A stretch of DNA of 17,800 bases from Abditibacteriaceae bacterium (GTDB lineage Bacteria > Armatimonadota > Abditibacteriia > Abditibacteriales > Abditibacteriaceae): assembly GCA_031425655.1 (NCBI GenBank), contig JANPJS010000228.1, forward strand, positions 1-17,800, read 5' to 3'. The stretch's first letter is position 1. Every line of letters starts with the position of its first letter. Positions 2,487-17,800 of the stretch are shown here, piece after piece. A model generated the notes under the pieces. That model was given only the letters and a program-made list of their open reading frames with translations. It was not told the DNA's origin and did not search any database. A program made the translations under genes and the position numbers.

Positions 2487-3408
2487 TTTCATGCTCCCTT
2501 TCTGGAAAACGCTGTCGTTTCTCGGCTCGGAAGAGTTCTATTTGCTGATCATGCCGGCGCTGATCTGGTGCGGCGATGCGGCGCTGGGTTTGCGCGTCGG
2601 CGTGCTGTTTTTGCTGAGCGCGAATCTCAACGGCGCGGCGAAATTGTTCTTTCACGCGCCGCGCCCGGCGTGGTTGGACAGCAAAATCATCGCGCTGGCG
2701 ACGGAGCACTCGTTCGGCTTTCCATCGGGCCACGCGCAAAACGCCCTCGCAGTTTGGGGCGTGTTAGCCGCCCAAGCGAAATCGCGCATCGCGTGGGCCA
2801 TCGCGCTGACGCTGATCGCGCTCATCGGCGTGTCGCGTCTGGCGTTGCGCGTTCACTTCGTCGGTGACGTAATCGGCGGCTGGATTATCGGCGCGCTTTT
2901 GCTCGTCACGTTCTTGAAGATTGAGAAGCCTGTCGGCGCGTGGCTGAAGCAGCGGGATTTCATTTCGCAGGTGGCGCTTTGCGGCGCGCTGTCGCTGGCG
3001 ATGGTTGGAGTGACCTTGTGGATAGGGTTTCAAACGGCCAGTAGCTTTGTTTTTGGCAAGTGGATATGGACACCTCATTATGCGAGCATGGCAGGATTAG
3101 CGGGTTTAGGAGAAAGCTTTGCCGTCCTTCCACAAATGAAAGCGCCCGGCGCGCTTTTCGGTTTGCTCATCGGCGCGTGCTGGATGCTAAAAAACGGCGG
3201 CTACGAAATCGGCGGAAACAAAATTGTGCGCTATTTTATCGGATTAATCGGCGTGTTGGTTTTCTGGTTCGGACTGGGAAAGCTGCTGCCGCGCGGCGAA
3301 GATTTGCTTTCGCTTGTCGCTGCTTACGTTCGCTACGCGCTCGTCGGATTTTGGATTTCGGCGGGTGCGCCGCTGGTTTTTCGGTGCGTGGAAAGAACGC
3401 GGATGTAG
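2479..3408 (+). CDS. PAP2-family membrane phosphatase
   Basis: PAP2 motifs K-x6-RP (KLFFHAPRP), PSGH (FPSGHAQ) and SR-x5-H-x3-D (SRLALRVHFVGD); multiple TM segments. Start is TTG 2479 or ATG 2491. Confidence 0.9.
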   Translation: MTDFMLPFWKTLSFLGSEEFYLLIMPALIWCGDAALGLRVGVLFLLSANLNGAAKLFFHAPRPAWLDSKIIALATEHSFGFPSGHAQNALAVWGVLAAQAKSRIAWAIALTLIALIGVSRLALRVHFVGDVIGGWIIGALLLVTFLKIEKPVGAWLKQRDFISQVALCGALSLAMVGVTLWIGFQTASSFVFGKWIWTPHYASMAGLAGLGESFAVLPQMKAPGALFGLLIGACWMLKNGGYEIGGNKIVRYFIGLIGVLVFWFGLGKLLPRGEDLLSLVAAYVRYALVGFWISAGAPLVFRCVERTRM

Positions 3409-3685
3409 GGGCGCAACCTGTTGCGCCCAATTTGCGGCCCCGCGCATTATTTCGAGGGCGTGACAGGGGCGCAACAGGTTGCGCCCCATACGTATCAACT
3501 TAAGAATTTTTTCCCGTGACACCCCATTAAAATGGGGCGCTACTGTTACAAAGTCCGCCTTCGCGGACTCGAAATTTAGTCCGCGAAGGCGGACTTCGTA
3601 ACCATAGAACCCGATTTTAATCGGGGTTGCGAGCGGATGATGCCTTAAGTTGATGTGTATGGGGCGCAACAGGTTGCGCCCCTAC
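3405..3685. repeat. GTAG-type REP doublet between convergent genes, interrupted by a MITE-like element
   Basis: GTAGGGGCGCAACCTGTTGCGCCC (3405-3428), GGGCGCAACAGGTTGCGCCC (3467-3486) and GGGCGCAACAGGTTGCGCCCCTAC (3662-3685). The terminal GTAG/CTAC tags contain the TAG stops of both flanking genes. Confidence 0.85.
3487..3661. mobile_element. 175-bp MITE-like element, copy 1 (18-bp terminal inverted repeats, internal REP-like hairpins)
   Basis: TIRs CATACGTATCAACTTAAG (3487-3504) and CTTAAGTTGATGTGTATG (3644-3661); central 56-bp hairpin 3546-3601; second copy of the same length at 5007-5181. Confidence 0.8.
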
Positions 3686-4854: not shown

Positions 4855-4888
4855 AAAATTGTTGTAGGACGCCGGGGGCTTAAGGTTC

Positions 4889-4946
4889 GTAGTCGCGCCG
4901 TGAGGCGCGTCGTTCCTCAAAATAACGCGACTCACGGCGCGACTAC
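4889..4946. repeat. GTAG-type REP doublet hairpin
   Basis: GTAGTCGCGCCGTGAG (4889-4904) is a perfect inverted repeat of CTCACGGCGCGACTAC (4931-4946); pairing continues inward imperfectly. Confidence 0.8.
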
Positions 4947-4970
4947 GACCAAAATCCGCTCTCTGCCGGG

Positions 4971-4988
4971 CTTAAGTTGATGCCTATG
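4971..4988. repeat. Orphan copy of the MITE terminal repeat
   Basis: CTTAAGTTGATGCCTATG, the exact reverse complement of the TIR at 5007-5024; only a CTTAAG remnant at 4879-4884 is available as a possible partner. Confidence 0.7.
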
Positions 4989-5006
4989 ACACGCCATAGC
5001 GTGTTC

Positions 5007-5181
5007 CATAGGCATCAACTTAAGGCATCGCGCGGCATCGCCCCGATTGAAATCGGGGTCTACGATTACAAAGTCCGCCTTCGCGGACTCGAAATTTAGT
5101 CCGCGCAGGCGGACTTTGTAAGAATAGCGCCCCATTTTAATGGGGTGAGCACAGGCGAAATTCCTTAAGTTGATGCGTATG
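5007..5181. mobile_element. 175-bp MITE-like element, copy 2
   Basis: TIRs CATAGGCATCAACTTAAG (5007-5024) and CTTAAGTTGATGCGTATG (5164-5181); central hairpin 5066-5121 nearly identical to copy 1; flanked on both sides by a GACACGC...GCGTGT REP-like hairpin. Confidence 0.8.
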
Positions 5182-5252
5182 GGACACGCTATGGCGTGTC
5201 CCTATAAAGGCTCACCGAGACATTAAGCGTTATGCCCATTTCGAGTCCATAT

Positions 5253-7915: not shown

Positions 7916-9409
7916 ATGAAAAAAATAGTTTTCGTTTTAGGTTTTGCCGGTTTTGTTGGTTACGCCACGTTGGGCGGCCAATCGCCGAGCGTAATGCAGG
8001 CGGTTGTGGCCGATCAGCCGGCGACTTACAGCAAGGACATCGCGCCGATTTTGTTTGAAAATTGTGCGTCGTGCCATCGTCCCGGCGAAGCTGCGCCGTT
8101 TTCGCTGCTGAATTACGAGGACACCAAAAAACGCGCGCGATTAATCGCCGATGTCACCGCGCAGCGCATCATGCCGCCGTGGCACGCCGACGAAGGCAAA
8201 GAAAAATTCCGCGACGCGCATTTGCTCTCCGACGCGCAAATCGCCGTTATCAAGCGTTGGGCCGAATCGGGAGCGCCGCAGGGCGATCCCAAAGATTTGC
8301 CGCCGCAGCCGAAATTCGTCGAAGGCTGGCAGCACGGTGAGCCGGATTACATCGCCGATCCCGGCGAAGATTACAACCTCGACGCCGAAGGCCGCGACGT
8401 GTATCGCTGCTTCGTGGTGAAAACCAACTTCCCTGAAGATCGTTACGTTTCGGCGGTCGAAGTGCGCCCCGGCAACCGTAAAGTCGTGCATCATCTGCTG
8501 GCGTTTCTCGATACGTCGGGTAAGGCGCGGCAGTTGGACGAAAAAGAACCCGGCCCCGGCTATCTGTCGTTCGGCGGGCCGGGCTTTACGCCGTCGGGCA
8601 CGTTGGGCGGCTGGGCGCCGGGCAACACCACGCATCCTGCTGCCGAGGGCACCGGCTGGCTTTTGCCCAAAGGCGCCGACATCGTTTTGCAGGTGCATTA
8701 CAACAAGTCGGGCAAGCCGGAAACCGACCGCACGAAAGTCGGCCTGTATTTCGTGAAAGGGCCAGTGGAAAAGCGCGTGCGCTGGCTGACGATTGTCAAT
8801 CCGCTGTTTCGCCTGCCCGCCGGGGCCAAAGATCATACGGTGCGCGCCGTGCAAATTGTGCCGGTTGACATCACGGCGCACGGCATCATGCCGCATATGC
8901 ACTTGCTGGGAAAAACCGCCGACGTGACCGCGACACTGCCCGACGGCACCACGAAAAAGCTGGTCAGCGTGCCGCGTTGGGATTTCAACTGGCAGCAAAG
9001 CTACGCTTTCAAAGAACCGATAAAACTGCCCAAAGGCACGCGCATTGACCATGTCGCGCATTACGACAACTCGGCGGAGAATCCGCGCAACCCGGCCAAC
9101 CCACCGCGCGACGTGCGCTGGGGCGAGCAAACCACCGACGAAATGTGCCTCGCCTTTTTGCTTTACACGCCCGACGATGAGCGCTTGACCAAAGGCGAAA
9201 GCGTCGGCGCTTTGCCCGGCGATTTCGGCGGCGGAGCGCGCGGCAACCGGGGCGGCGGTGGTTTAGGCGGCGGCGGTTTGGGCGGCGGCGAAATCCTGAA
9301 GATGGCGCTGACGATGTTCGACAAAAACAAAAACGGCCAACTCGACCCCGACGAACGCGAAGAAGCCATCAAATACGCCCTCCAACTCTTCGGCACCGCC
9401 GGACAATAG
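7916..9409 (+). CDS. Secreted heme c / copper type II ascorbate-dependent monooxygenase-like protein with C-terminal EF-hand
   Basis: Signal-like N-terminus MKKIVFVLGF; CASCH heme motif and MPPW; VVHH, HY, PHMH and DEMC copper-ligand pattern; Gly-rich linker; EF-hand DKNKNGQLDPDE. Confidence 0.85.
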   Translation: MKKIVFVLGFAGFVGYATLGGQSPSVMQAVVADQPATYSKDIAPILFENCASCHRPGEAAPFSLLNYEDTKKRARLIADVTAQRIMPPWHADEGKEKFRDAHLLSDAQIAVIKRWAESGAPQGDPKDLPPQPKFVEGWQHGEPDYIADPGEDYNLDAEGRDVYRCFVVKTNFPEDRYVSAVEVRPGNRKVVHHLLAFLDTSGKARQLDEKEPGPGYLSFGGPGFTPSGTLGGWAPGNTTHPAAEGTGWLLPKGADIVLQVHYNKSGKPETDRTKVGLYFVKGPVEKRVRWLTIVNPLFRLPAGAKDHTVRAVQIVPVDITAHGIMPHMHLLGKTADVTATLPDGTTKKLVSVPRWDFNWQQSYAFKEPIKLPKGTRIDHVAHYDNSAENPRNPANPPRDVRWGEQTTDEMCLAFLLYTPDDERLTKGESVGALPGDFGGGARGNRGGGGLGGGGLGGGEILKMALTMFDKNKNGQLDPDEREEAIKYALQLFGTAGQ

Positions 9410-9410
9410 G

Positions 9411-9539
9411 ATTAAACACAAAGGCACAAAGACACAAAGCAAGCACAAAGATTTTTGAGAAAACTCTGAGCGTTAGACTTTCAGTTATCTCAATCTTTTC
9501 TTTGTGCTTGCTTTGTGTCTTTGTGCCTTTGTGTTTAAT
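9411..9539. repeat. Long intergenic hairpin, CACAAAG-unit family
   Basis: Perfect 41-bp inverted repeat ATTAAACACAAAGGCACAAAGACACAAAGCAAGCACAAAGA (9411-9451 / 9499-9539), with further imperfect pairing inside. Confidence 0.95.
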
Positions 9540-9555
9540 TCCTAAACTAACACCG

Positions 9556-10578
9556 ATGAAGATTGCAGATTTTGTTGTTGAGCCGAATTTGGTTTTAGCG
9601 CCGATGGCGGGCGTGACCAGCGCGCCGTTCCGTTTGCTGTGCCGTCGCTACGGCGCCGGGATGTCGTTCAGCGAGTTGGTGTCGTCGAGCGCGCTGATTA
9701 TGGGCGGCGAAAAGTCGAAAATCAAGTCGAATCAACTGGCGTGGTTTTCCGAAGAAGAACGCCCGGTCGCCGTCCAGATTTTCGGCGGCGACCCGGCCAT
9801 TATGCGCGACGCAGCGGCGCTTGTCGCGGCCACAAAGCCGAATGCCATTGACATCAATATGGGTTGTTCCGTGCCGAAAATCGCACGCTGCGGCGCCGGA
9901 TGTCTGCTGCTCAAAACGCCCGCACAAGCGCAGGCCGTGATTGCCGCGACGGTCGAAGGCGCGGCGCGATTTGGCGTGCCCGTGACGGTCAAAATGCGCG
10001 CCGGTTGGGACAGCGATAACATTACTGCGCCCGAAGTGGCCAAGCGTGCCCAAGATGTCGGCGCCGTTGCGATTTCGGTTCATCCGCGCACCGCAAAGCA
10101 GGCGTTCACGGGTCTGTCCGATTGGTCGGTCATTCGTCGCGTCAAGGAAAGCGTGAGCCTTCCCGTTATCGGTTGCGGCGACGTGCATAGTGGCCCCGAC
10201 GCCAAACGAATGCTTGATGAAACCGGCTGCGATGCCGTGATGATTGGCCGCGCCGCAATGGGCAATCCGTTTCTCTTCGCGCAAATCGCCCAATACCTGC
10301 GCGACGGCAGCGATGCGCCCGAACCAACTTCCGACGAGAAAATCGAAACCGCTTTATGGCACGGACGCGAATTAACAGCGCTGCGCGGCGAACACACCGC
10401 GATGAACGAAATGCGTCGCCACGCCGCGTGGTATACAAAGGGAATGCCCGAATCCTCGCGCCTGCGCGACCGCCTTTGCCGCGTTTCCACAATGACCGAA
10501 CTCGAAGACATTCTTGATGAGGCGCTTCACATCGCGCACCAATACGAAGCCCGTGACCTTGCCGGTGTTTGGAACTGA
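9556..10578 (+). CDS. dusB: tRNA dihydrouridine synthase DusB
   Basis: LAPMAGVT, VQIFG, IDINMGC, PVTVKMRAGWD, H.RT, GCGDV, DAVMIGRAAMGNP, R.H..WY.KG. The real start is most likely ATG 9556; the ORF-track extension lies in the hairpin. Confidence 0.95.
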   Translation: MKIADFVVEPNLVLAPMAGVTSAPFRLLCRRYGAGMSFSELVSSSALIMGGEKSKIKSNQLAWFSEEERPVAVQIFGGDPAIMRDAAALVAATKPNAIDINMGCSVPKIARCGAGCLLLKTPAQAQAVIAATVEGAARFGVPVTVKMRAGWDSDNITAPEVAKRAQDVGAVAISVHPRTAKQAFTGLSDWSVIRRVKESVSLPVIGCGDVHSGPDAKRMLDETGCDAVMIGRAAMGNPFLFAQIAQYLRDGSDAPEPTSDEKIETALWHGRELTALRGEHTAMNEMRRHAAWYTKGMPESSRLRDRLCRVSTMTELEDILDEALHIAHQYEARDLAGVWN

Positions 10579-10585
10579 AACTTTG

Positions 10586-11086
10586 AATAGAACGCGGAGC
10601 TTCGCTGCGCGGATTTCATGCGCGGATTTTCGCTGTCAGGAGAAAGTTGTGTTTAAACATGGTGAACTAACCGGACAGATTATCGAGACGTTTTATGCGG
10701 TTTATGGCCGATTGGGGCATGGCTTTTTGGAAAAGGTTTATGAAAACGCGCTGGCGCTGGAACTGCGTGAACGCGGGTTTCGTGTTCAGCAGCAATCACC
10801 GATTAGCGTTTTCTACAATGGCGTTCTGGTCGGCGAATATTTCGCAGATTTGCTTGTGGAAGGCTGCGTCATTGTAGAAGTCAAGGCCGTCGAGAAACTC
10901 TGTGAAGAACACTCTGCCCAGTTATTGAACTATCTTAAAGCGACCGAAATCGAGGTTGGCCTGTTGCTTAATTTTGGCCCAAAGCCCGAAACCAAACGCA
11001 AAGTTTTTGAAACCGCACGCCACAAAATCAACTGAAAACCGCGAAAATCCGCGCATGAAATCCGCGTGCAAAGCCCGCGTTCTATT
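10586..11086. mobile_element. Putative GxxExxY cassette bounded by ~50-bp inverted repeats
   Basis: Left IR 10586-10635 AATAGAACGCGGAGCTTCGCTGCGCGGATTTCATGCGCGGATTTTCGCTG; right IR 11039-11086 (reverse complement AATAGAACGCGGGCTTTGCACGCGGATTTCATGCGCGGATTTTCGCGG). The IRs are directly seen; mobility is inferred. Confidence 0.65.
10649..11035 (+). CDS. GxxExxY protein (PD-(D/E)XK-like nuclease fold)
   Basis: GTG start after AGGAG (10638-10642); GFLEKVY = GxxExxY motif; ADLLVE..VIVEVK = D...ExK; H.AQLLNYLKAT...GLLLNFG; 128 aa. Confidence 0.93.
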   Translation: MFKHGELTGQIIETFYAVYGRLGHGFLEKVYENALALELRERGFRVQQQSPISVFYNGVLVGEYFADLLVEGCVIVEVKAVEKLCEEHSAQLLNYLKATEIEVGLLLNFGPKPETKRKVFETARHKIN

Positions 11087-11095
11087 TCTCCCATT

Positions 11096-12127
11096 ATGAA
11101 AGCCTTAGTGAAAAGCCGAAGTGAGCCGGGGTTATGGCTCGAAGACGTGCCGGAGCCGGAAATCGGCATCAACGATGTGCTGATTCGCGTGGACAGAACC
11201 GGCATCTGCGGGACGGATTTGCACATCTATAATTGGGATGCGTGGGCGCAGAAAACGATTCCGGTTCCGATGGTTGTCGGGCACGAGTTCGTCGGCGAGA
11301 TTGTCGAAGTCGGCTCGAATGTGCCCGATTTTGCGCCCGGCGATGTGGTCAGCGCCGAAGGCCACGTTGTTTGCGGGCACTGCCGCAACTGTCTGGCGGG
11401 GCGGCGGCATTTGTGCGCGCATACCAAAGGCATCGGCGTCAATCGGCCCGGCGCGTTCGCCGAATATATCGCGGTGCCGCAAAGCAATGTCTGGCATCAT
11501 GCACCTGATATTGACCGCGACGTAGCCTCGATTTTCGATCCGTTCGGCAACGCGGTTCACACCGTGCTTTCGTTCAACGTGCTGGGCGAAGATGTGCTGA
11601 TTACCGGCGCCGGGCCGATTGGCTGCATGGCGGCGGCGATTGCGCGTCATGCCGGCGCGCGTTACGTGGTTGTCACCGATGTTAACGAATATCGCCTCGA
11701 TTTGGCTCGCAAAATGGGCGCGACCGTCGCGCTGAATGTGAAAACCGGCAACTTGCGCGACGCGCAGGCCGCTCTCGGCATGAAAGAAGGCTTCGATGTC
11801 GGCCTTGAGATGTCCGGCAATCCGCAGGCGCTTCACGATATGGTGGACAATTTGTGTCACGGCGGCAAAATCGCCATGCTCGGCATTCCGCCGACGCAGT
11901 TCGCCATTGATTGGAACAAAGTCGTCTTCAATATGCTGACGATTAAGGGCATTTATGGCCGCGAAATGTATGAAACCTGGTATAAAATGACGGTCATGCT
12001 GCAAGGCGGGCTGGACATCAAGCCTATCATCACGCACCGCTTCGCTTACACCGAATTTGAACAAGGCTTCGCCGCGATGAACAGCGGCCAATCGGGCAAA
12101 GTGATTCTCAATTGGAAGGCTGAATAG
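11096..12127 (+). CDS. tdh: L-threonine 3-dehydrogenase
   Basis: [30 protein letters not shown], structural Zn CGHCRNC...[21 protein letters not shown]; adjacent to kbl. Confidence 0.97.
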
Positions 12128-12257
12128 AACACGGATTTCGCGGAAACGGCCACGGATTCACGCGGATTCTCTTCCAATTATGGGTTGATGACTCAGTAAA
12201 ACCGGAATCTAAATCTGTGAAAATCCGTGGCCGTTTCCGCGAAATCCGTGTTCCATT
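12123..12257. repeat. Gene-less 135-bp hairpin related to the GxxExxY inverted repeats
   Basis: Arms 12123-12168 / 12212-12257; the outer 36 bp (AATAGAACACGGATTTCGCGGAAACGGCCACGGATT) are 35/36 complementary; begins within the tdh TAG stop. Confidence 0.9.
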
Positions 12258-12264
12258 AAAAGTC

Positions 12265-13449
12265 ATGAATCTTCAATTTCAAACTCATCTTCAGCAACAA
12301 CTCGACGCGATTCGCGCGGCGGGCACTTACAAAAGCGAGCGCGTTATTACCACGCCGCAGGACGCGCATATTAAAGTGGTGGGCGGGCGCGAAGTTTTGA
12401 ATATGTGCGCCAATAATTACCTCGGTTTGGCCGAGCATCCCGAAGTTGTCGCGGCGGCGCATCGCGCTTTGGACGAGTGGGGCTATGGTTTGTCGTCAGT
12501 GCGCTTCATTTGCGGCACGCAGAGTTTGCACAAGCAGCTCGAAGCCAAGATCAGCGAGTTCTTGGGCACCGACGACACGATTCTTTATTCGTCGTGCTTC
12601 GACGCTAACGGCGGCTTGTTTGAAACGCTGCTCGGACAGGAAGACGCCGTTATCTCCGACGAATTGAACCACGCCAGCATCATTGACGGCGTGCGCTTGT
12701 GCAAAGCGGCGCGCTTTCGCTATCGCAACAGCGACATGAGCGACTTGGAAACGCAACTGCAAGCGTCGCAAAACGCACGCTTTCGACTCATCGCCACCGA
12801 CGGTGTGTTTTCGATGGACGGCACGATTGCGAATTTAAAAGCGATTTGCGATCTAGCCGATAAATACCATGCGCTGGTGATGGTAGACGACTCGCACGCC
12901 GTCGGCTTTTTAGGCGCACGCGGACGCGGCACGCACGAGCTTTGCGGCGTGATGAATCGCGTGGATATTCTCACCGGCACGCTGGGCAAAGCTTTAGGCG
13001 GCGCCAGCGGCGGCTACACCAGCGGGCGCCGCGAAATTATCGAACTGCTGCGCCAACGCTCGCGGCCTTACTTGTTTTCCAACACGCTTGCGCCGCCGAT
13101 AGCCGGCGCATCGCTGCGCGTTTTGGAACTGCTTTCGGCTTCGACCGAACTGCGCGACAAACTCGAAGCCAACGCCAAATTCTTCCGCGCAGGCATGACG
13201 CGATTGGGCTTCAACATCGTGCCCGGCACGCATCCGATTGTGCCCGTCATGCTCGGCGATGCGGCTTTGGCCACCAAAATGGCCGACGCGCTGCTCGAAA
13301 AAGGCGTTTACGTCATCGGATTTTCGTTTCCCGTCGTTCCGCAGGGCAAAGCGCGCATTCGCGTGCAAGTTTCCGCCGCGCATTCGCACGCCGATTTGGA
13401 ATTTGCCTTGCGCGCGTTCGGTGAAGTTAAAAGTGAGATGAAACTATGA
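12265..13449 (+). CDS. kbl: Glycine C-acetyltransferase (2-amino-3-ketobutyrate CoA ligase)
   Basis: [56 protein letters not shown] lysine [19 protein letters not shown]. Confidence 0.97.
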
Positions 13450-13588
13450 AACACAAAGACGCAAAGACACAAAGCCAAACACGCGGGCATGAGACGGAAA
13501 GACAAGGAAATTTTGCGCCTTCTTTGCTCCGTGTCTCTTTATCTCCCCCTCTCCGTGTCCGGCTTTGTGTCTTTGCGTCTTTGTGTTT
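13449..13588. repeat. Long intergenic hairpin, CACAAAG-unit family (second copy)
   Basis: Perfect 28-bp inverted repeat AAACACAAAGACGCAAAGACACAAAGCC (13449-13476 / 13561-13588); inner purine-rich left and pyrimidine-rich right segments pair imperfectly. Confidence 0.92.
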
Positions 13589-13598
13589 AACAATCTCT

Positions 13599-14393
13599 AT
13601 GATTCAACCCTCACCAGCCGCGCCGTCGGCTGTTAATCCCAACGCGGCACGTTCGATTCATCTGGGCTATCCGGCGCCCGAAGGCACCTTGTTTTACAAC
13701 GAGGCGACCGTCGAGGAAACCGTTCCCGGCAGTTATTTCATGGCGTGCGGTTTTCACCGTGGCTACTTCGGCATTCAGGAATTGGGCGACGGCAAAAAAG
13801 TGGTCATCTTTTCGGTTTGGGATCCAACCGTCGGCGATAATCCCAACGCCGTCGCGCCGCAGCAGCAAGTGGAAGTTCTGAGTCAGGGCGAGGGCGTAGA
13901 CGTGTCGCGCTTTGGCGGCGAGGGCACAGGCGGCAAAAGTATGTGGCGCTACGATTGGAAAATCGGCAATACCTACAAATTCCTCGTCGCGGCGACCGTT
14001 GACGGCGATAAAACCACCTTCGCGGGCTACTTTTTCGTGCCCGAACAGCATCGCTGGCAACAAATGGCGACGTTTCGCACGAAAACAGGCGGCGCTCCGC
14101 TGAGAGGCTATTATTCGTTCGTCGAGGACTTCCGGCGCGACGGCAAAAGCGCCGAACAAATTCGTCGTGCGCGTTTCGGCAACGGCTGGATCAAGACTCT
14201 CACCGGCGATTGGATCGCTTTGCGCCGTGCGCGCTTCACCGCCGACGGCAACACGCAAATGCACATCAACGCCGGCGCCACCGGCGACAGTTTTTTCCTG
14301 CAAACCGGAGGCACCACGAAAAACACGCTGCCGCTGCTGTCTATTATTGAACGCCCGTTGTCCGGCCTCGATTTGCCTGAAATCACCAAATAA
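13599..14393 (+). CDS. DUF3472/DUF5077-like beta-rich protein
   Basis: ARSIHLGY, FYNE, SYFMACGF..GYFGIQE, IFSVWD, FGGEGTGG, YSFVEDF, RARFGNGW, recognised as the DUF3472 pattern; start ATG 13599. Confidence 0.8.
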   Translation: MIQPSPAAPSAVNPNAARSIHLGYPAPEGTLFYNEATVEETVPGSYFMACGFHRGYFGIQELGDGKKVVIFSVWDPTVGDNPNAVAPQQQVEVLSQGEGVDVSRFGGEGTGGKSMWRYDWKIGNTYKFLVAATVDGDKTTFAGYFFVPEQHRWQQMATFRTKTGGAPLRGYYSFVEDFRRDGKSAEQIRRARFGNGWIKTLTGDWIALRRARFTADGNTQMHINAGATGDSFFLQTGGTTKNTLPLLSIIERPLSGLDLPEITK

Positions 14394-14397
14394 AACA

Positions 14398-14721
14398 TAG
14401 GAATTACGGACTCACCTTACGCAGTGGAGTGTGATAGGCAGGTCAACCAACAAGGTGATGAGTCATTCTGAGTCCTGCCCAGAGGGCACCCGGAAGAATC
14501 TCTGCGTAAGAGCTTCCACACTCAGCATGAGCAAAAGCACCGCAGAGGCCGAGATTCTTCCGGGTGCCCTCTGGGCAGGACTCAGAATGACTCATCACCT
14601 TGTTGGTTGACCTGCCTATCACACCCCAATGCGTAAGGTGAGTTACGGAGTTGGACACGCGCCCGCCCAGAGGGCACCCGGCGTGTCCTCAACAAAAGTT
14701 GCTCCAACTCCGTAATTCCTA
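14398..14721. mobile_element. Outer MITE-like element whose left TIR is interrupted
   Basis: Removing 14411-14642 plus one TTACGGA copy restores TAGGAATTACGGAGTTGGA, the perfect reverse complement of TCCAACTCCGTAATTCCTA (14703-14721). Confidence 0.75.
14411..14642. mobile_element. 232-bp fold-back MITE-like element with target-site duplication
   Basis: 92-bp arms (14411-14502 / 14551-14642), 90/92 complementary, 48-nt loop; flanked by the direct repeat TTACGGA (14404-14410 / 14643-14649). Confidence 0.85.
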
Positions 14722-14832
14722 AAAACCAAAGTCAACAATTGCACTTCGCCATGCAAATTTTGACTTTGCGGCACTGTTAGGATACTCGCGCTTTCGGCCA
14801 TAACCGATGCATCTTGCAGGGGAGGGACGCTG

Positions 14833-15117
14833 ATGCATCCGATTGTAATTCTGTTTCTGCTGTTCGCCGCACTGGGCGGAATGGGCTATTTGTGGACGAC
14901 GAAATCTGCGCCGCTACTTGGCCCCTTAGCGGCTTTGCGCGCACGTTTTGGGCTGTCCGATCATCTCGTCGTCACATTTGTAATTGGCGTTGTCGCGCTC
15001 TGGGTTCTTTATCAAATCTATGTGGTCATTCGCACCGCGACCCTCAATCGTCAGGCGAATACGCGACTGCGCGAAAGCAGCAAAACGCAAGACAGCCAAT
15101 ACACCAATCGCCGTTAA
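14833..15117 (+). CDS. Small hypothetical membrane protein (2 TM helices)
   Basis: GGGAGG RBS upstream of the ATG; two hydrophobic helices and a basic C-terminal tail. Confidence 0.6.
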   Translation: MHPIVILFLLFAALGGMGYLWTTKSAPLLGPLAALRARFGLSDHLVVTFVIGVVALWVLYQIYVVIRTATLNRQANTRLRESSKTQDSQYTNRR

Positions 15118-15356
15118 AGCTGGTCGTGCGACTGTTAATCCACTCCAACATAGCTCTTTCCCTGCCGCAATCGTGTTAATTCGATGGGCGAAGGTCTTCC
15201 TCGCCAGCCTCGCTTTATTGATGAAGACTTTCGCCTTTAATTCATCGCTTGCCAAAAATCATAAAGCGGCACATAATGAATGGCGCCGTTTGGTTGGGCA
15301 TTATTCCGTTTGTATGAGCTTTGCTTTTCGCCGCAACCAAACTCAATAGTCGCTCT

Positions 15357-15503
15357 ACAGCTTGCTTTATTCAGCAAACAGCTTGCTTTGCTCAACAAAC
15401 AGCTTGCTCTACGAGGCACTTAGCGTTTCTTTGGCGGCAATTAGTGTGTTTTGAGCAACAAGCATCCTGCTTGAACACGATGTCTCACTGCTCCCGCTTT
15501 CAT
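15357..15503. repeat. Degenerate 21-nt tandem repeat tract
   Basis: ACAGCTTGCTTTATTCAGCAA / ACAGCTTGCTTTGCTCAACAA / ACAGCTTGCTCTACGAGGCAC followed by ~4 decayed units in the same phase. Confidence 0.7.
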
Positions 15504-15579
15504 GCGGAGCAAGCGAATAGCGTTTGCATTTGTTGTTTCTGGCGTGAAACGTAAAAGCAATATTAAGCAGGAGGCTATG

Positions 15580-16275
15580 ATGGGCTTTTTATCGTCGGCC
15601 AACTCGTTATCTGAATTGTCGTTATTTGCCGGTTTACCCGAAACAACGTTGGATTCCATTGGCAAGCGATTGGAACGTCGTTCGTTTCGCAAGGGCACCG
15701 CACTTTTGATGGCCGGTGAAAACTCCGGCATCGTCTTCATTGTGCAGAGCGGTTTGGTGCGTATCGTAACCAGTAATCGTTCCGGGGAGAATGTGCTGCT
15801 GGGCTTGCTGGGGCCGGGCGAGATCATCGGTGAGATCAGCGCTCTGGATAATCTGGCGCACTCCGCCGACGTTGTCGCCGATGAAGACTGTATTTGTTGG
15901 TGTCTGCCTGCGGATGCTTTACACGAATACCTGCGCCTTTTTCCGGAGATGGCGATCAATCTTCTGTGCATGACGGTCAAGAGAGTGCGCAACACCACAG
16001 AGAGAATCACCATGCTCTCGACTCAGGATTGCACGGGCCGCGTTGCACAGCAATTGTTGATCTTCGCGCATCAATGCGGCGTTGATCTTCCGAATGGCGT
16101 TATCGAGATTCCCTTGTCGGTGACGCAAGGGGACATCGCCGCACTCACCGGTGTTTCCCGTCAGAGCGTGAATGCGGCTTTCAAGCAATTGCGCGCGATA
16201 AACGCAGTTTCCTGCAATAAAACGGGCCATTACATGATTCACAAACCCGAACTTTTGGCCCACCGCTGCCGCTGA
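15580..16275 (+). CDS. Crp/Fnr-family transcriptional regulator
   Basis: AGGAGG RBS (15569-15574); cNMP-binding-like domain (LFAGL, GLVRI, LGPGEIIGEISALD..HSADV); HTH TQGDIAALTGVSRQSVNAAFKQL. Confidence 0.92.
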   Translation: MGFLSSANSLSELSLFAGLPETTLDSIGKRLERRSFRKGTALLMAGENSGIVFIVQSGLVRIVTSNRSGENVLLGLLGPGEIIGEISALDNLAHSADVVADEDCICWCLPADALHEYLRLFPEMAINLLCMTVKRVRNTTERITMLSTQDCTGRVAQQLLIFAHQCGVDLPNGVIEIPLSVTQGDIAALTGVSRQSVNAAFKQLRAINAVSCNKTGHYMIHKPELLAHRCR

Positions 16276-16359
16276 TTCTCGTCAATCTTCACTTCATAAA
16301 GAGGCACAACCTCAGAAGCTGTCTGAAAATAGCCATTAGTCCTGAGTTCAGTTGCTTTT

Positions 16360-16494
16360 AATAGAACGCGGAGCTTCGCTATCCGACCCGCAAGCGGGTG
16401 CCCCGATTTCATGCGCGGATTTTCGCTGATTTCTTTCGGTAAAACCGCGAAAATCCGCGCACAACGTCCGCGAAGCGAAGCTCCGCGTCCCATT
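16360..16494. repeat. Gene-less 135-bp derivative of the GxxExxY cassette
   Basis: 16360-16380 = 10586-10606 (21/21), 16405-16428 = 10612-10635 (24/24), 16441-16461 = 11035-11055 (21/21); only 12 nt separate the arms where the gene would be. Confidence 0.9.
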
Positions 16495-16596
16495 GAAAAA
16501 GTCTCTGGTGTTAGTCTGTAACGAATCTCGGACGGTTTCTAACGGTTGTGCCCCTTTCCCCTTTCGCCCTTTGCCATCGTTCCTCTGAGCTTACGC

Positions 16597-16658
16597 TGTC
16601 AAATATTTAACAGCACTTCTGTCAAATATCTGACAGGCAAAGTGTCAGGTATTTGACA
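16597..16658. promoter_or_regulatory. Three phased Crp/Fnr-type palindromic boxes (TGTCA-N6-TGACA)
   Basis: TGTCAAATATTTAACA (16597-16612), TGTCAAATATCTGACA (16620-16635), TGTCAGGTATTTGACA (16643-16658); exact 23-bp spacing; 54 nt upstream of the next start. Confidence 0.75.
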
Positions 16659-16712
16659 GCCAAGCCTTTGTTTATCCAGCAAAATAAAACCATTCGACTT
16701 CATGGAGAGGCT

Positions 16713-17363
16713 ATGCTGACTAATCCAACTCCAGACCCATTCGGCGATTTACTGACCGATTTAAACGACAAATTACAGCAGGACACCAGGAAATACGGCG
16801 TTACGCCAGACGAGCTGACAGCGCTCAACGATTTAACGACGGATTATTTAGCCAAGCGACAAACCAAGCGCGATAAAGCCCGCGAAGCACAGGCGGCGGC
16901 GACGGCTCTGAGCAGCGTAACCAAGACGGCGACCCCGTTTGTCAGCCGCTTGCGCCAGCGCATGGCCCTGCACCCGGAGATGAGCGACGAGGGCCGCCAA
17001 CTTTATAATCTGGTTCAGCGCGGCGGGCCTCGTGTTGCGGTCAGTTTGACGGAAGAAGCGCCCTTGCTGCGTCTCGATTTCGGCACGCGTGGGCGCATGA
17101 CCATTCACGCCGGCCCCAACCCCGGCAACGGACGACGCAACGGCAAACCCAAAGGCGCCGCCGCGCTTCTCGTGGAACACCACGAAGGCGGCGCCCCGAC
17201 CAGCGAAAACGAGTGGAAACACCTCGTTCAAGTCACCAGTTCCCCGGTGACCCACCAGCCCGGCGGAGGCACCCGCACCTTCGCCTACCGCGCCTGCTAC
17301 GTGGACGGCAAAGGCAATCGCAGCCCGTGGAGCGATATGGTAGTTGGCACGATTGCGGGATGA
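16713..17363 (+). CDS. Hypothetical protein (helical N-terminus, predicted beta-sandwich/FN3-like C-terminus)
   Basis: GGAGAGG RBS before ATG 16713; amphipathic helical first half; C-terminal ..YRACYVDGKGNRSPWSD pattern typical of FN3-like ends (fold is an inference). Confidence 0.75.
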   Translation: MLTNPTPDPFGDLLTDLNDKLQQDTRKYGVTPDELTALNDLTTDYLAKRQTKRDKAREAQAAATALSSVTKTATPFVSRLRQRMALHPEMSDEGRQLYNLVQRGGPRVAVSLTEEAPLLRLDFGTRGRMTIHAGPNPGNGRRNGKPKGAAALLVEHHEGGAPTSENEWKHLVQVTSSPVTHQPGGGTRTFAYRACYVDGKGNRSPWSDMVVGTIAG

Positions 17364-17381
17364 TACGACAAGGAGGTTTTT

Positions 17382-17666
17382 ATGTCTGTTGCCAAAATTG
17401 ATTTGGACAACCTCGAATCGCTTTTCAGCGATTTGCAGCGACAAGGTGTGAATTATGGTCTTGGTGCCAAACCCGAAGGTGGCTCGGACCCACGCAACGG
17501 TAGGCGTTGGAATACACGTTCCAATGGGCATCTCAGCACTCGGCCCAGCACCATAGACAATCTTGACTGCTCCGGCTTCATTCGCTACCTGCTTTTCAAA
17601 GCCACCGATGGCGGTCTCGTGATTCCGGATGGCTCACAGATGCAACGAGGCTGGTGTGAAAGGTGA
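17382..17666 (+). pseudogene. NlpC/P60-like peptidase gene truncated by IS insertion
   Basis: AAGGAGG RBS; Y.LG and LDCSGFIRY catalytic-Cys motif; no downstream catalytic His region; the stop TGA (17664-17666) is the first three bases of the IS. Confidence 0.7.
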
Positions 17667-17800
17667 CCTGCACCCCAAAAACTGATCCATTTGAAAGGTT
17701 AGAATCTCAGCCAAAGGAACGACGAGATGAAAACCCGACAGTGGAGCGAGGAACGGATTATCGGCCTGTTACAGCAGGCGGAAAAAGGCGAGACAACCAT
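17664..17800 (+). mobile_element. IS3-family insertion sequence, left end (continues beyond the window)
   Basis: 5'-TG terminus TGACCTGCACCCCAAAAACTGATCCA followed 63 nt later by an OrfA-like start. Confidence 0.85.
17727..17800 (+). CDS. IS3-family transposase OrfA, N-terminal fragment
   Basis: MKTRQWSEERIIGLLQQAEKGETT matches the MK..F/WSEEQII..L..AE.G pattern of IS3-family (IS407-like) OrfA; AAGGA upstream. Confidence 0.82.
   Translation, partial: MKTRQWSEERIIGLLQQAEKGETT

Follow-up and report, generated by a model that had tools for sequence, protein, structure and literature searches.

The hairpin at 16360-16494 is a gene-less member of a repeat family, family A, whose arms elsewhere surround a gene for a small protein called GxxExxY, and it lies inside an IS5-family MITE. 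Our main reading, to which we give a probability of roughly 0.6, is that the MITE carried this copy, whereas the family's free hairpins owe their spread to the GxxExxY protein. The best reading of the sequences is a REPIN/RAYT-like system in which a Cas4/RecB-like nuclease would be the enzyme and an IS5 MITE would have captured one shell. The window, i.e. the whole stretch of DNA analysed, spans 17,800 nucleotides of contig C228 from a 5.98-Mb, 327-contig genome (G000). Its features are collected in Table 1.

Table 1. Positions, strands and supporting remarks for the features of the window
Feature	Position	Strand	Remark
Filled family-A cassette between dusB and tdh	10586-11086	+	
GxxExxY gene, predicted PD-(D/E)XK fold, likely GTG start 10649	10649-11035	+	Profile, model and fold searches
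Free empty family-A hairpin in the tdh-kbl interval; its end provides the TAG stop of tdh	12123-12257	.	
Left arm of 14-bp terminator-like hairpin split by the MITE	16298-16311	+	13/14 complementary to 16544-16557
Left TNA flank TCA, putative target-site duplication; middle base unlike right flank	16312-16314	+	
IS5-family MITE enclosing the hairpin, 225 bp	16315-16539	.	TIR pair and spacers common to 38 composites
Left terminal inverted repeat (TIR) of the MITE	16315-16330	+	Same pattern bounds IS5 transposase in G012 and DDE remnant on G000 C52
Left spacer (L type), conserved among composites	16331-16359	+	
Gene-less GxxExxY-type hairpin, family A, CGCGG subtype, 135 bp	16360-16494	.	
Left terminal word AATRGRACRCGG	16360-16371	+	300 genome copies; tracks protein clade
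c-GAA-g DNA mini-hairpin module	16372-16380	-	
22-nt small hairpin insert, absent from filled cassette	16383-16404	.	11 exact genome copies
12-nt central spacer (cassette: 399 nt)	16429-16440	.	
c-GAA-g DNA mini-hairpin module	16474-16482	+	
Right terminal word	16483-16494	-	
Right spacer (R type), conserved among composites	16495-16523	+	
Right TIR of the MITE; 2 mismatches to search consensus	16524-16539	-	
Right TNA flank TAA	16540-16542	+	
Right arm of interrupted terminator-like hairpin	16544-16557	+	

Results

The focal hairpin was initially described as an empty copy of the filled cassette, on the basis of three shared blocks of 21, 24 and 21 bp and a gene region replaced by 12 nt. Sequence comparison within the window confirms the blocks and the replacement exactly: 10586-10606 is identical to 16360-16380, 10612-10635 to 16405-16428 and 11035-11055 to 16441-16461, the order and strand of the blocks are the same in both copies, and 399 nt of the cassette (10636-11034) correspond to 16429-16440. 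The third block starts at the last base of the cassette gene's TGA stop. The two copies differ by the 22-nt hairpin insert and in their outer right arms. As DNA, the region 16355-16500 folds into a long hairpin on both strands (z=-6.7 and -7.1). The genome has 300 occurrences of the terminal word AATRGRACRCGG and one base-shuffled copy of it has 6; given this excess and the fold, the arm match is not due to chance. A search of Rfam with 16360-16494 gave no match at E<=1.

Joining the nearest termini within 600 bp produced 138 paired family-A elements with a median length of 118 bp, 2 of them filled (C228 and C215) and 136 empty; two longer spans between exact termini, of 689 and 1433 bp, fall outside this filled/empty count. 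No two of the empty copies are identical. These counts bear out the earlier proposal that the arms are copied together and independently of the gene, and that the focal copy is a non-autonomous member of the cassette's arm family. The family divides into 38 hairpins that lie within MITE ends and 100 that are free, and the hairpin at 12123-12257 is the better example of a free empty copy within the window.

The free copies have symmetrical ends, AAACTTTC/AATGG (end profile TTTC/AATGG). Among 96 of them, tested for target duplications of 2-9 nt at seven boundary offsets, no setting exceeded 9/96 except an AA dinucleotide, which lies within the conserved end and equals its permuted value. With crude ORF calls, 73 of 93 hairpin ends that face the 3' end of a gene lie between -10 and +30 nt from the stop, and 77 of 95 elements sit between co-directional genes (background 2867/4135). 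The TAG stop is often supplied by the hairpin terminus. Each arm is a mosaic of modules and consists of 8-9-nt words in an array; the same module occurs in both arms in 50 of 98 cases compared with 15.6 expected. A CTNCG word points inward in 218 of 300 arms and outward in 2. Near the 3' end of each strand there is a c-GNA-g mini-hairpin whose stems covary. Mini-hairpins of this type are very stable and nuclease-resistant as DNA, and GNA triloops are more stable in DNA, according to the accessible part of PMC13037366. We also considered an RNA cUNCGg reading and rejected it, the commonest forms having no C-G closing pair. Since only 3 of 106 cross-phylum arms contain the mini-hairpin, it appears to be a local accessory and no general requirement.

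Five of the seven other GxxExxY arm types in G000 have 11-25 empty pairs and two have 0-1. At 9411-9539 and 13440-13597 the window holds empty hairpins of another GxxExxY-type arm family, characterized by ACACAAAG words. This family has 32 pairs in G000 with no filled copy among the nine GxxExxY genes, and it is filled in G002 and G009.

On both sides of the focal hairpin, about 45 bp of flank reappear next to many other copies and end in 16-bp inverted repeats. The preliminary description had the copy move by its own ends, a claim that is not supported here. It had also named shared flanking sequence among the observations that would speak against it; such sharing was found, in an unforeseen form, the flanks being those of an IS5-family MITE common to 38 copies. 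The composites are about 200-310 bp long and have no transposase inside. A single founder is suggested by their left and right spacers, each of which has a constant type and length. In the genome G012 an intact IS5-family transposase gene (NF033580) lies between the same TIR pattern with TAA flanks on both sides, and in G000 a DDE transposase remnant on C52, 50% identical to the G012 transposase, ends in the same TIR. This remnant is all that a search of the 327-contig G000 assembly for an intact transposase with this TIR returned, and the profile of the IS1182 transposase, PF13751, had no match in G000. We take the outer element to be of the IS1031/IS427 subgroup, presumably with TNA as its target.

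With both ends scored, the 3-bp flanks are identical in 13 of 29 composites, compared with 7.4 in permutations (p=0.009), and unlike in the other 16, which include the focal copy (TCA/TAA); TNA is present on both sides in 22 of 29. For TIR pairs of any content, with 3 long spurious pairs dropped, the flanks are identical in 21 of 41. When the MITE is removed in silico the focal site folds as a hairpin with a 4-nt loop. This target hairpin was also considered as a repeat family of its own, for which no matching copy was found. In G002 the orthologous site has no MITE between crp and the next gene, which are neighbours there; the two genomes are too far apart for the junctions to be compared base by base. 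Given this absence, and a MITE common to 38 copies, the focal hairpin likely arrived as a passenger, and we hold this part of our reading to be highly probable. No clear case of MITE insertion into a gene was seen. A comparison of contigs from four DNA runs, in which rare variants are dropped, with 9300-17800 found no joint, among those listed, that skips the cassette or the MITE.

G000 has 85 matches to the TIR pattern and three congeners have 2, 4 and 7, and nearest-neighbour identity is 0.93 for composites versus 0.86 for free copies, so the composites are a later, lineage-specific burst. The 85 TIR ends lead into family A in 43 cases, two unrelated hairpin families in 23 and 11, and other sequences in 8, one of which is a family-A variant. 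A 22-bp palindromic remnant at C54:18011 in G000 consists of two MITE ends alone. In five other genomes of the family (loci L234, L235, L238, L239 and L241) REP-like hairpins of other types come after the same IS5-type TIR, so that the placing of IS5 ends next to or around hairpins is a recurrent one.

The GxxExxY gene, searched as 10646-11035, matches TIGR04256 (E=1.4e-41, 141.5 bits against a cut-off of 35) and PF13366 (PDDEXK_3; E=8e-42, 142.7 bits against a cut-off of 22). The residues D68, E78-x-K80 and Q92xxxY96 are invariant in 39 sequences, a D..ExK..QxxxY motif set that we take to be Cas4/RecB-like. A structure model of the protein (pLDDT 93.5) has Cas4 SSO0001 as its top Foldseek match (E=8e-5), and the best match in a wide structural search, at Z 8.2, is generic PD-(D/E)XK and within the range that the tool calls common. 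By its modelled fold, which matches Cas4 and other members, and its catalytic D and ExK residues, the protein is a predicted member of the PD-(D/E)XK nuclease family. A sequence search of the PDB returned nothing significant.

GxxExxY genes are found in 23 of 31 genomes around G000 and in 68 of 121 from one sampled phylum. The nine in G000 all have an inverted repeat that scores above shuffles. An Atlas search returned GxxExxY clusters alone, a single-protein query of viral contigs found no GxxExxY relative, and a plasmid search found 8 of 72,556 records. In the literature, a table row of PMC3424549 lists the function of PF13366 as 'Unknown' with multiple transfers, in passages that mention no flanking repeats, and GxxExxY appears as a domain name near Cas4 in the accessible part of PMC8934634. 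A literature search that left subscription journals largely outside found no description of repeat-armed GxxExxY genes, on which the repeat tables of PMC3733652 could bear, and, within the same scope, none of IS5 ends wrapping such hairpins.

An inverted repeat above shuffled controls surrounds the gene at 104 of 135 GxxExxY loci. A quick tree was built from 133 proteins, with 3 short ones dropped and the long-branch C106 left out of the counts. A branch with a support of 96 separates two sides of this tree: the family-A-like terminal word lies beside the gene in 74 of 90 cases on the one and in 2 of 42 on the other, in a set where 80 loci had been picked for likeness to the query and the word was defined after the arms were seen. 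The association spans phyla. In the group of relatives, 5 of 31 genomes have expanded exact termini (300, 96, 49, 41 and 26 copies), each with an armed gene. Further afield, 26 of the 50 distant genomes (out of 80) with a clade gene have at least 10 termini, and the reversed control reaches at most 3.

An even sample of 120 genomes from another phylum, with the centre excluded and a clade-level gene defined by E<=4e-35, gave a similar comparison. At least 10 termini occur in 9 of 18 genomes with a clade gene, in 4 of 49 with other GxxExxY genes only and in 0 of 53 with none (maximum 3). For 9/18 versus 4/102 the Fisher test gives p=2e-6, a statistic that ignores kinship. The remaining 9 of the 18 clade-gene genomes have fewer than 10 termini, and the 4 genomes that carry other-clade genes only have 11-20. 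In G003, the empty copies are mostly of the CACGG type and the filled cassette is of the CGCGG type.

The occupancy of orthologous sites is variable. Between dusB and tdh, G000 has a filled cassette, G001 an empty hairpin and G002 only the left arm. In G002 (locus L046) this lone family-A arm precedes a degenerate TTTTCTGC-rich tandem array of about 600 bp. At the C193 junction, G001, G002 and G003 each have a filled cassette; G000 is bare there and the stop overlaps the next start. The five genes concerned form one clade (support 98/97). Cassette replacement at the C193 site was considered, and is not claimed because a single clade for the three genes that share the site was not rejected by an AU test (p=0.15). 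Out of 34 paired congener hairpins, 16 could be mapped to syntenic G000 sites, 17 were unmapped and 1 was at an edge. The 16 sites hold family A in 4 cases, another long hairpin in 6, a borderline hairpin in 1, and are bare in 5; another long hairpin is thus present at 6 of the 12 sites without family A, versus a 21% baseline (614/2867, p=0.03). The tdh-kbl junction has a hairpin in 8 of 11 resolvable genomes, from several unrelated families. Since varied families occur at the same sites, hairpin junctions are reused, and this keeps an explanation by host function alive. At the LutA-LutB site, lutB lies outside the loci for G001-G003. Two junctions, named by eye as carA-carB-like and leuC-leuD-like, have GxxExxY cassettes in relatives, and in G000 (C235:9400-10708 and C70:13125-13719) they have small gene pairs that by eye are toxin-antitoxin-like.

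The window contains further repeats. Two REPIN-like palindromes (3522-3625 and 5042-5145) match in sequence the flanks of a Y1/RAYT-like gene at C12:4782 of G000, and are flanked by REP-like repeats at 3405-3685 and 4887-5204. At 14410-14643 there is a 96-bp, 97% perfect inverted repeat of a GTCATTCTGAG hairpin family (240 genome arm matches), with a small GCCCAGAGGGC module in both arms. The roughly 19-bp module based on GCCCAGAGGGC, present in the window at 14410-14690, matches the genome 542 times over both strands, which corresponds to about 270 sites, and many unrelated repeat families contain it. Three tandem 21-nt copies lie upstream of the Crp-like gene at 15357-15419. A TGTCA...TGACA palindrome array lies between the Crp-like gene and the next gene at 16595-16660; it is also present in G002 and is shorter in G001. 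These palindromes are possibly regulator binding sites.

Discussion

We propose that the focal hairpin and the free family have different histories. A single CGCGG-type hairpin, together with about 30 bp of its flank to either side, would have come to sit between IS5 ends, and an IS5 transposase acting in trans may then have multiplied this composite at TNA sites. In the present case the MITE would have inserted into the loop of the small terminator-like hairpin. The free hairpins, we lean towards believing, are spread by the GxxExxY nuclease with the help of host repair and gene conversion. The candidate nuclease would recognise the terminal word on a folded single strand or a cruciform and cut there, and host repair would then put the hairpin or the whole cassette beside a stop codon. 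The arm modules would be reshuffled as copies undergo gene conversion with one another, and filling or emptying of a shell may occur in place. This model is based on correlation, no cleavage or movement having been observed. Some of our data speak against it: the clade-gene genomes with few termini, the 4 genomes with 11-20 termini and other-clade genes only, the differing types of empty and filled copies in G003, the two filled arm types with 0-1 empty pairs, the 32-pair type that has no filled copy, and the unrelated hairpin families at the same junctions, which a sequence-specific nuclease alone does not explain. For the MITE, the unlike flanks of the focal copy and of other composites, and a transposase found in G000 as a remnant, are the points against.

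A more ambitious proposal is, for the present, a tentative one that we rate as rather doubtful. GxxExxY cassettes may be a distinct class of mobile element whose sole enzyme would be a 125-residue Cas4/RecB-like nuclease, which reads the clade-specific word, plants hairpins at stops without duplication and refills shells. IS5 ends would then hijack the shells, repeatedly wrapping unrelated hairpin families, and the result would be a two-level parasite.

Two other histories of the focal copy have to be weighed. The preliminary description suggested that the gene was deleted from the cassette at 10586-11086 and that the copy moved 5.3 kb by its own ends, in line with the three exact blocks and the CGCGG subtype of both copies. 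Judged by the similarity ranking this is largely refuted and hardly credible: the neighbouring cassette is only 39th of 137 in similarity to the focal copy, 35 of the 38 closer copies are MITE-borne, the shared blocks are common in the genome (10, 16 and 4 occurrences), and the insert, right arm and flanks are unlike. The cassette's rank and the commonness of the blocks argue that the focal copy is kin of the cassette and not its direct deletion product. The outer repeats may, in another account, be stray IS ends or an assembly collapse of repeats and not one mobile unit. The composites with non-identical flanks fit this account, as do the common right flank of C257 and C327 near a contig end, and the fact that among the listed contig pieces of run X1 none spans the element. 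We nevertheless regard it as very improbable: no two copies are identical, the spacers are fixed, gene order across the site is kept in G002, and the focal flanks are two halves of one hairpin.

For the free family, the GxxExxY protein may be cargo or a co-opted partner, with the terminal word only a binding or regulatory site, and the hairpins moved by a RAYT-like HUH enzyme in trans, a DDE transposase or host recombination. G000 has six Y1-family genes and ten DDE_Tnp_1 matches, IS5 ends enclose 38 of the copies, the c-GNA-g mini-hairpins are compatible with transposition as a single strand, and orphan arm families exist. That said, 0 of the 6 Y1/RAYT-like genes carry family-A termini, the free copies have no target duplication, and expansions occur in none of the 53 genomes without a GxxExxY match, and we consider this alternative unlikely. 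It is less likely still that the host selects the hairpins for a role in mRNA at operon junctions, as stabilisers or processing sites, and that they are swapped in from the DNA of relatives and homogenised by gene conversion rather than transposed. The recurrent hairpins at tdh-kbl and at the syntenic sites without family A fit this idea, but 5 of the 16 syntenic sites are bare in G000, and the idea accounts neither for 138 copies scattered over non-homologous sites, nor for the link with one nuclease clade across phyla, nor for the greater stability of GNA triloops in DNA. Spread by the GxxExxY protein is the reading that we retain.

The closest known systems differ from this one in informative ways. 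As described in the accessible parts of PMC3116915 and bioRxiv 10.1101/2021.07.10.451892, REPINs are also extragenic inverted doublet hairpins of about 100 bp, with hundreds of copies and a slow turnover, and the same repeats flank the rare cognate enzyme gene. That enzyme is an HUH tyrosine transposase encoded by a single-copy gene at a fixed site, whereas here a PD-(D/E)XK nuclease is predicted and the gene occupies two sites in G000 and a third in G001-G003. Furthermore, family A has no terminal GTAG or CGTC tag, its arms are arrays of 8-9-nt words and its copies lie at stop codons inside operons. TIRtrons with TIRYT genes (PMC3733652, accessible part) likewise have a gene between TIRs that also form a dispersed repeat family, but the gene is a tyrosine transposase there and GxxExxY here.

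The outer element resembles the IS5-family MITEs BrickBuilt of Porphyromonas gingivalis (PMC4596501) and Nezha (PMC3184786), which, in the accessible text of these papers, have the TIRs of a full-length IS, no internal transposase, an internal repeat passenger, and filled and empty orthologous sites. BrickBuilt is thus a precedent for an IS5 MITE that holds an internal repeat (PMC4596501). Unlike these, the passenger here is a shell that belongs to a different mobile family, and in G000 at least three hairpin families that are unrelated to each other are enclosed by the same ends. The free inner hairpins, for their part, are unlike a classical TIR element in that 96 copies have no target-site duplication. 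Cas4/RecB-like nucleases (PDB 4ic1, 4r5q) share the predicted fold and the D..ExK..QxxxY motif set, but the GxxExxY protein is only some 125 aa long, its alignment lacks a conserved cysteine cluster, there is no CRISPR match in the vicinity of its gene, and the structural similarity is modest (Z 7.6).

Conclusion

A lesson of this locus is that an 'empty copy' may have travelled on a different element. The clade-specific terminal word is a concrete candidate substrate for the GxxExxY proteins, whose function is listed as unknown. If the protein does spread the hairpins, then REPIN-like populations would have arisen with a second, unrelated enzyme chemistry, and part of the long hairpins at about one fifth of the co-directional gene junctions in G000 would be explained. 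GxxExxY genes would in that case also be a source of very small sequence-directed nucleases, and a widespread, unstudied protein family would gain a testable job.
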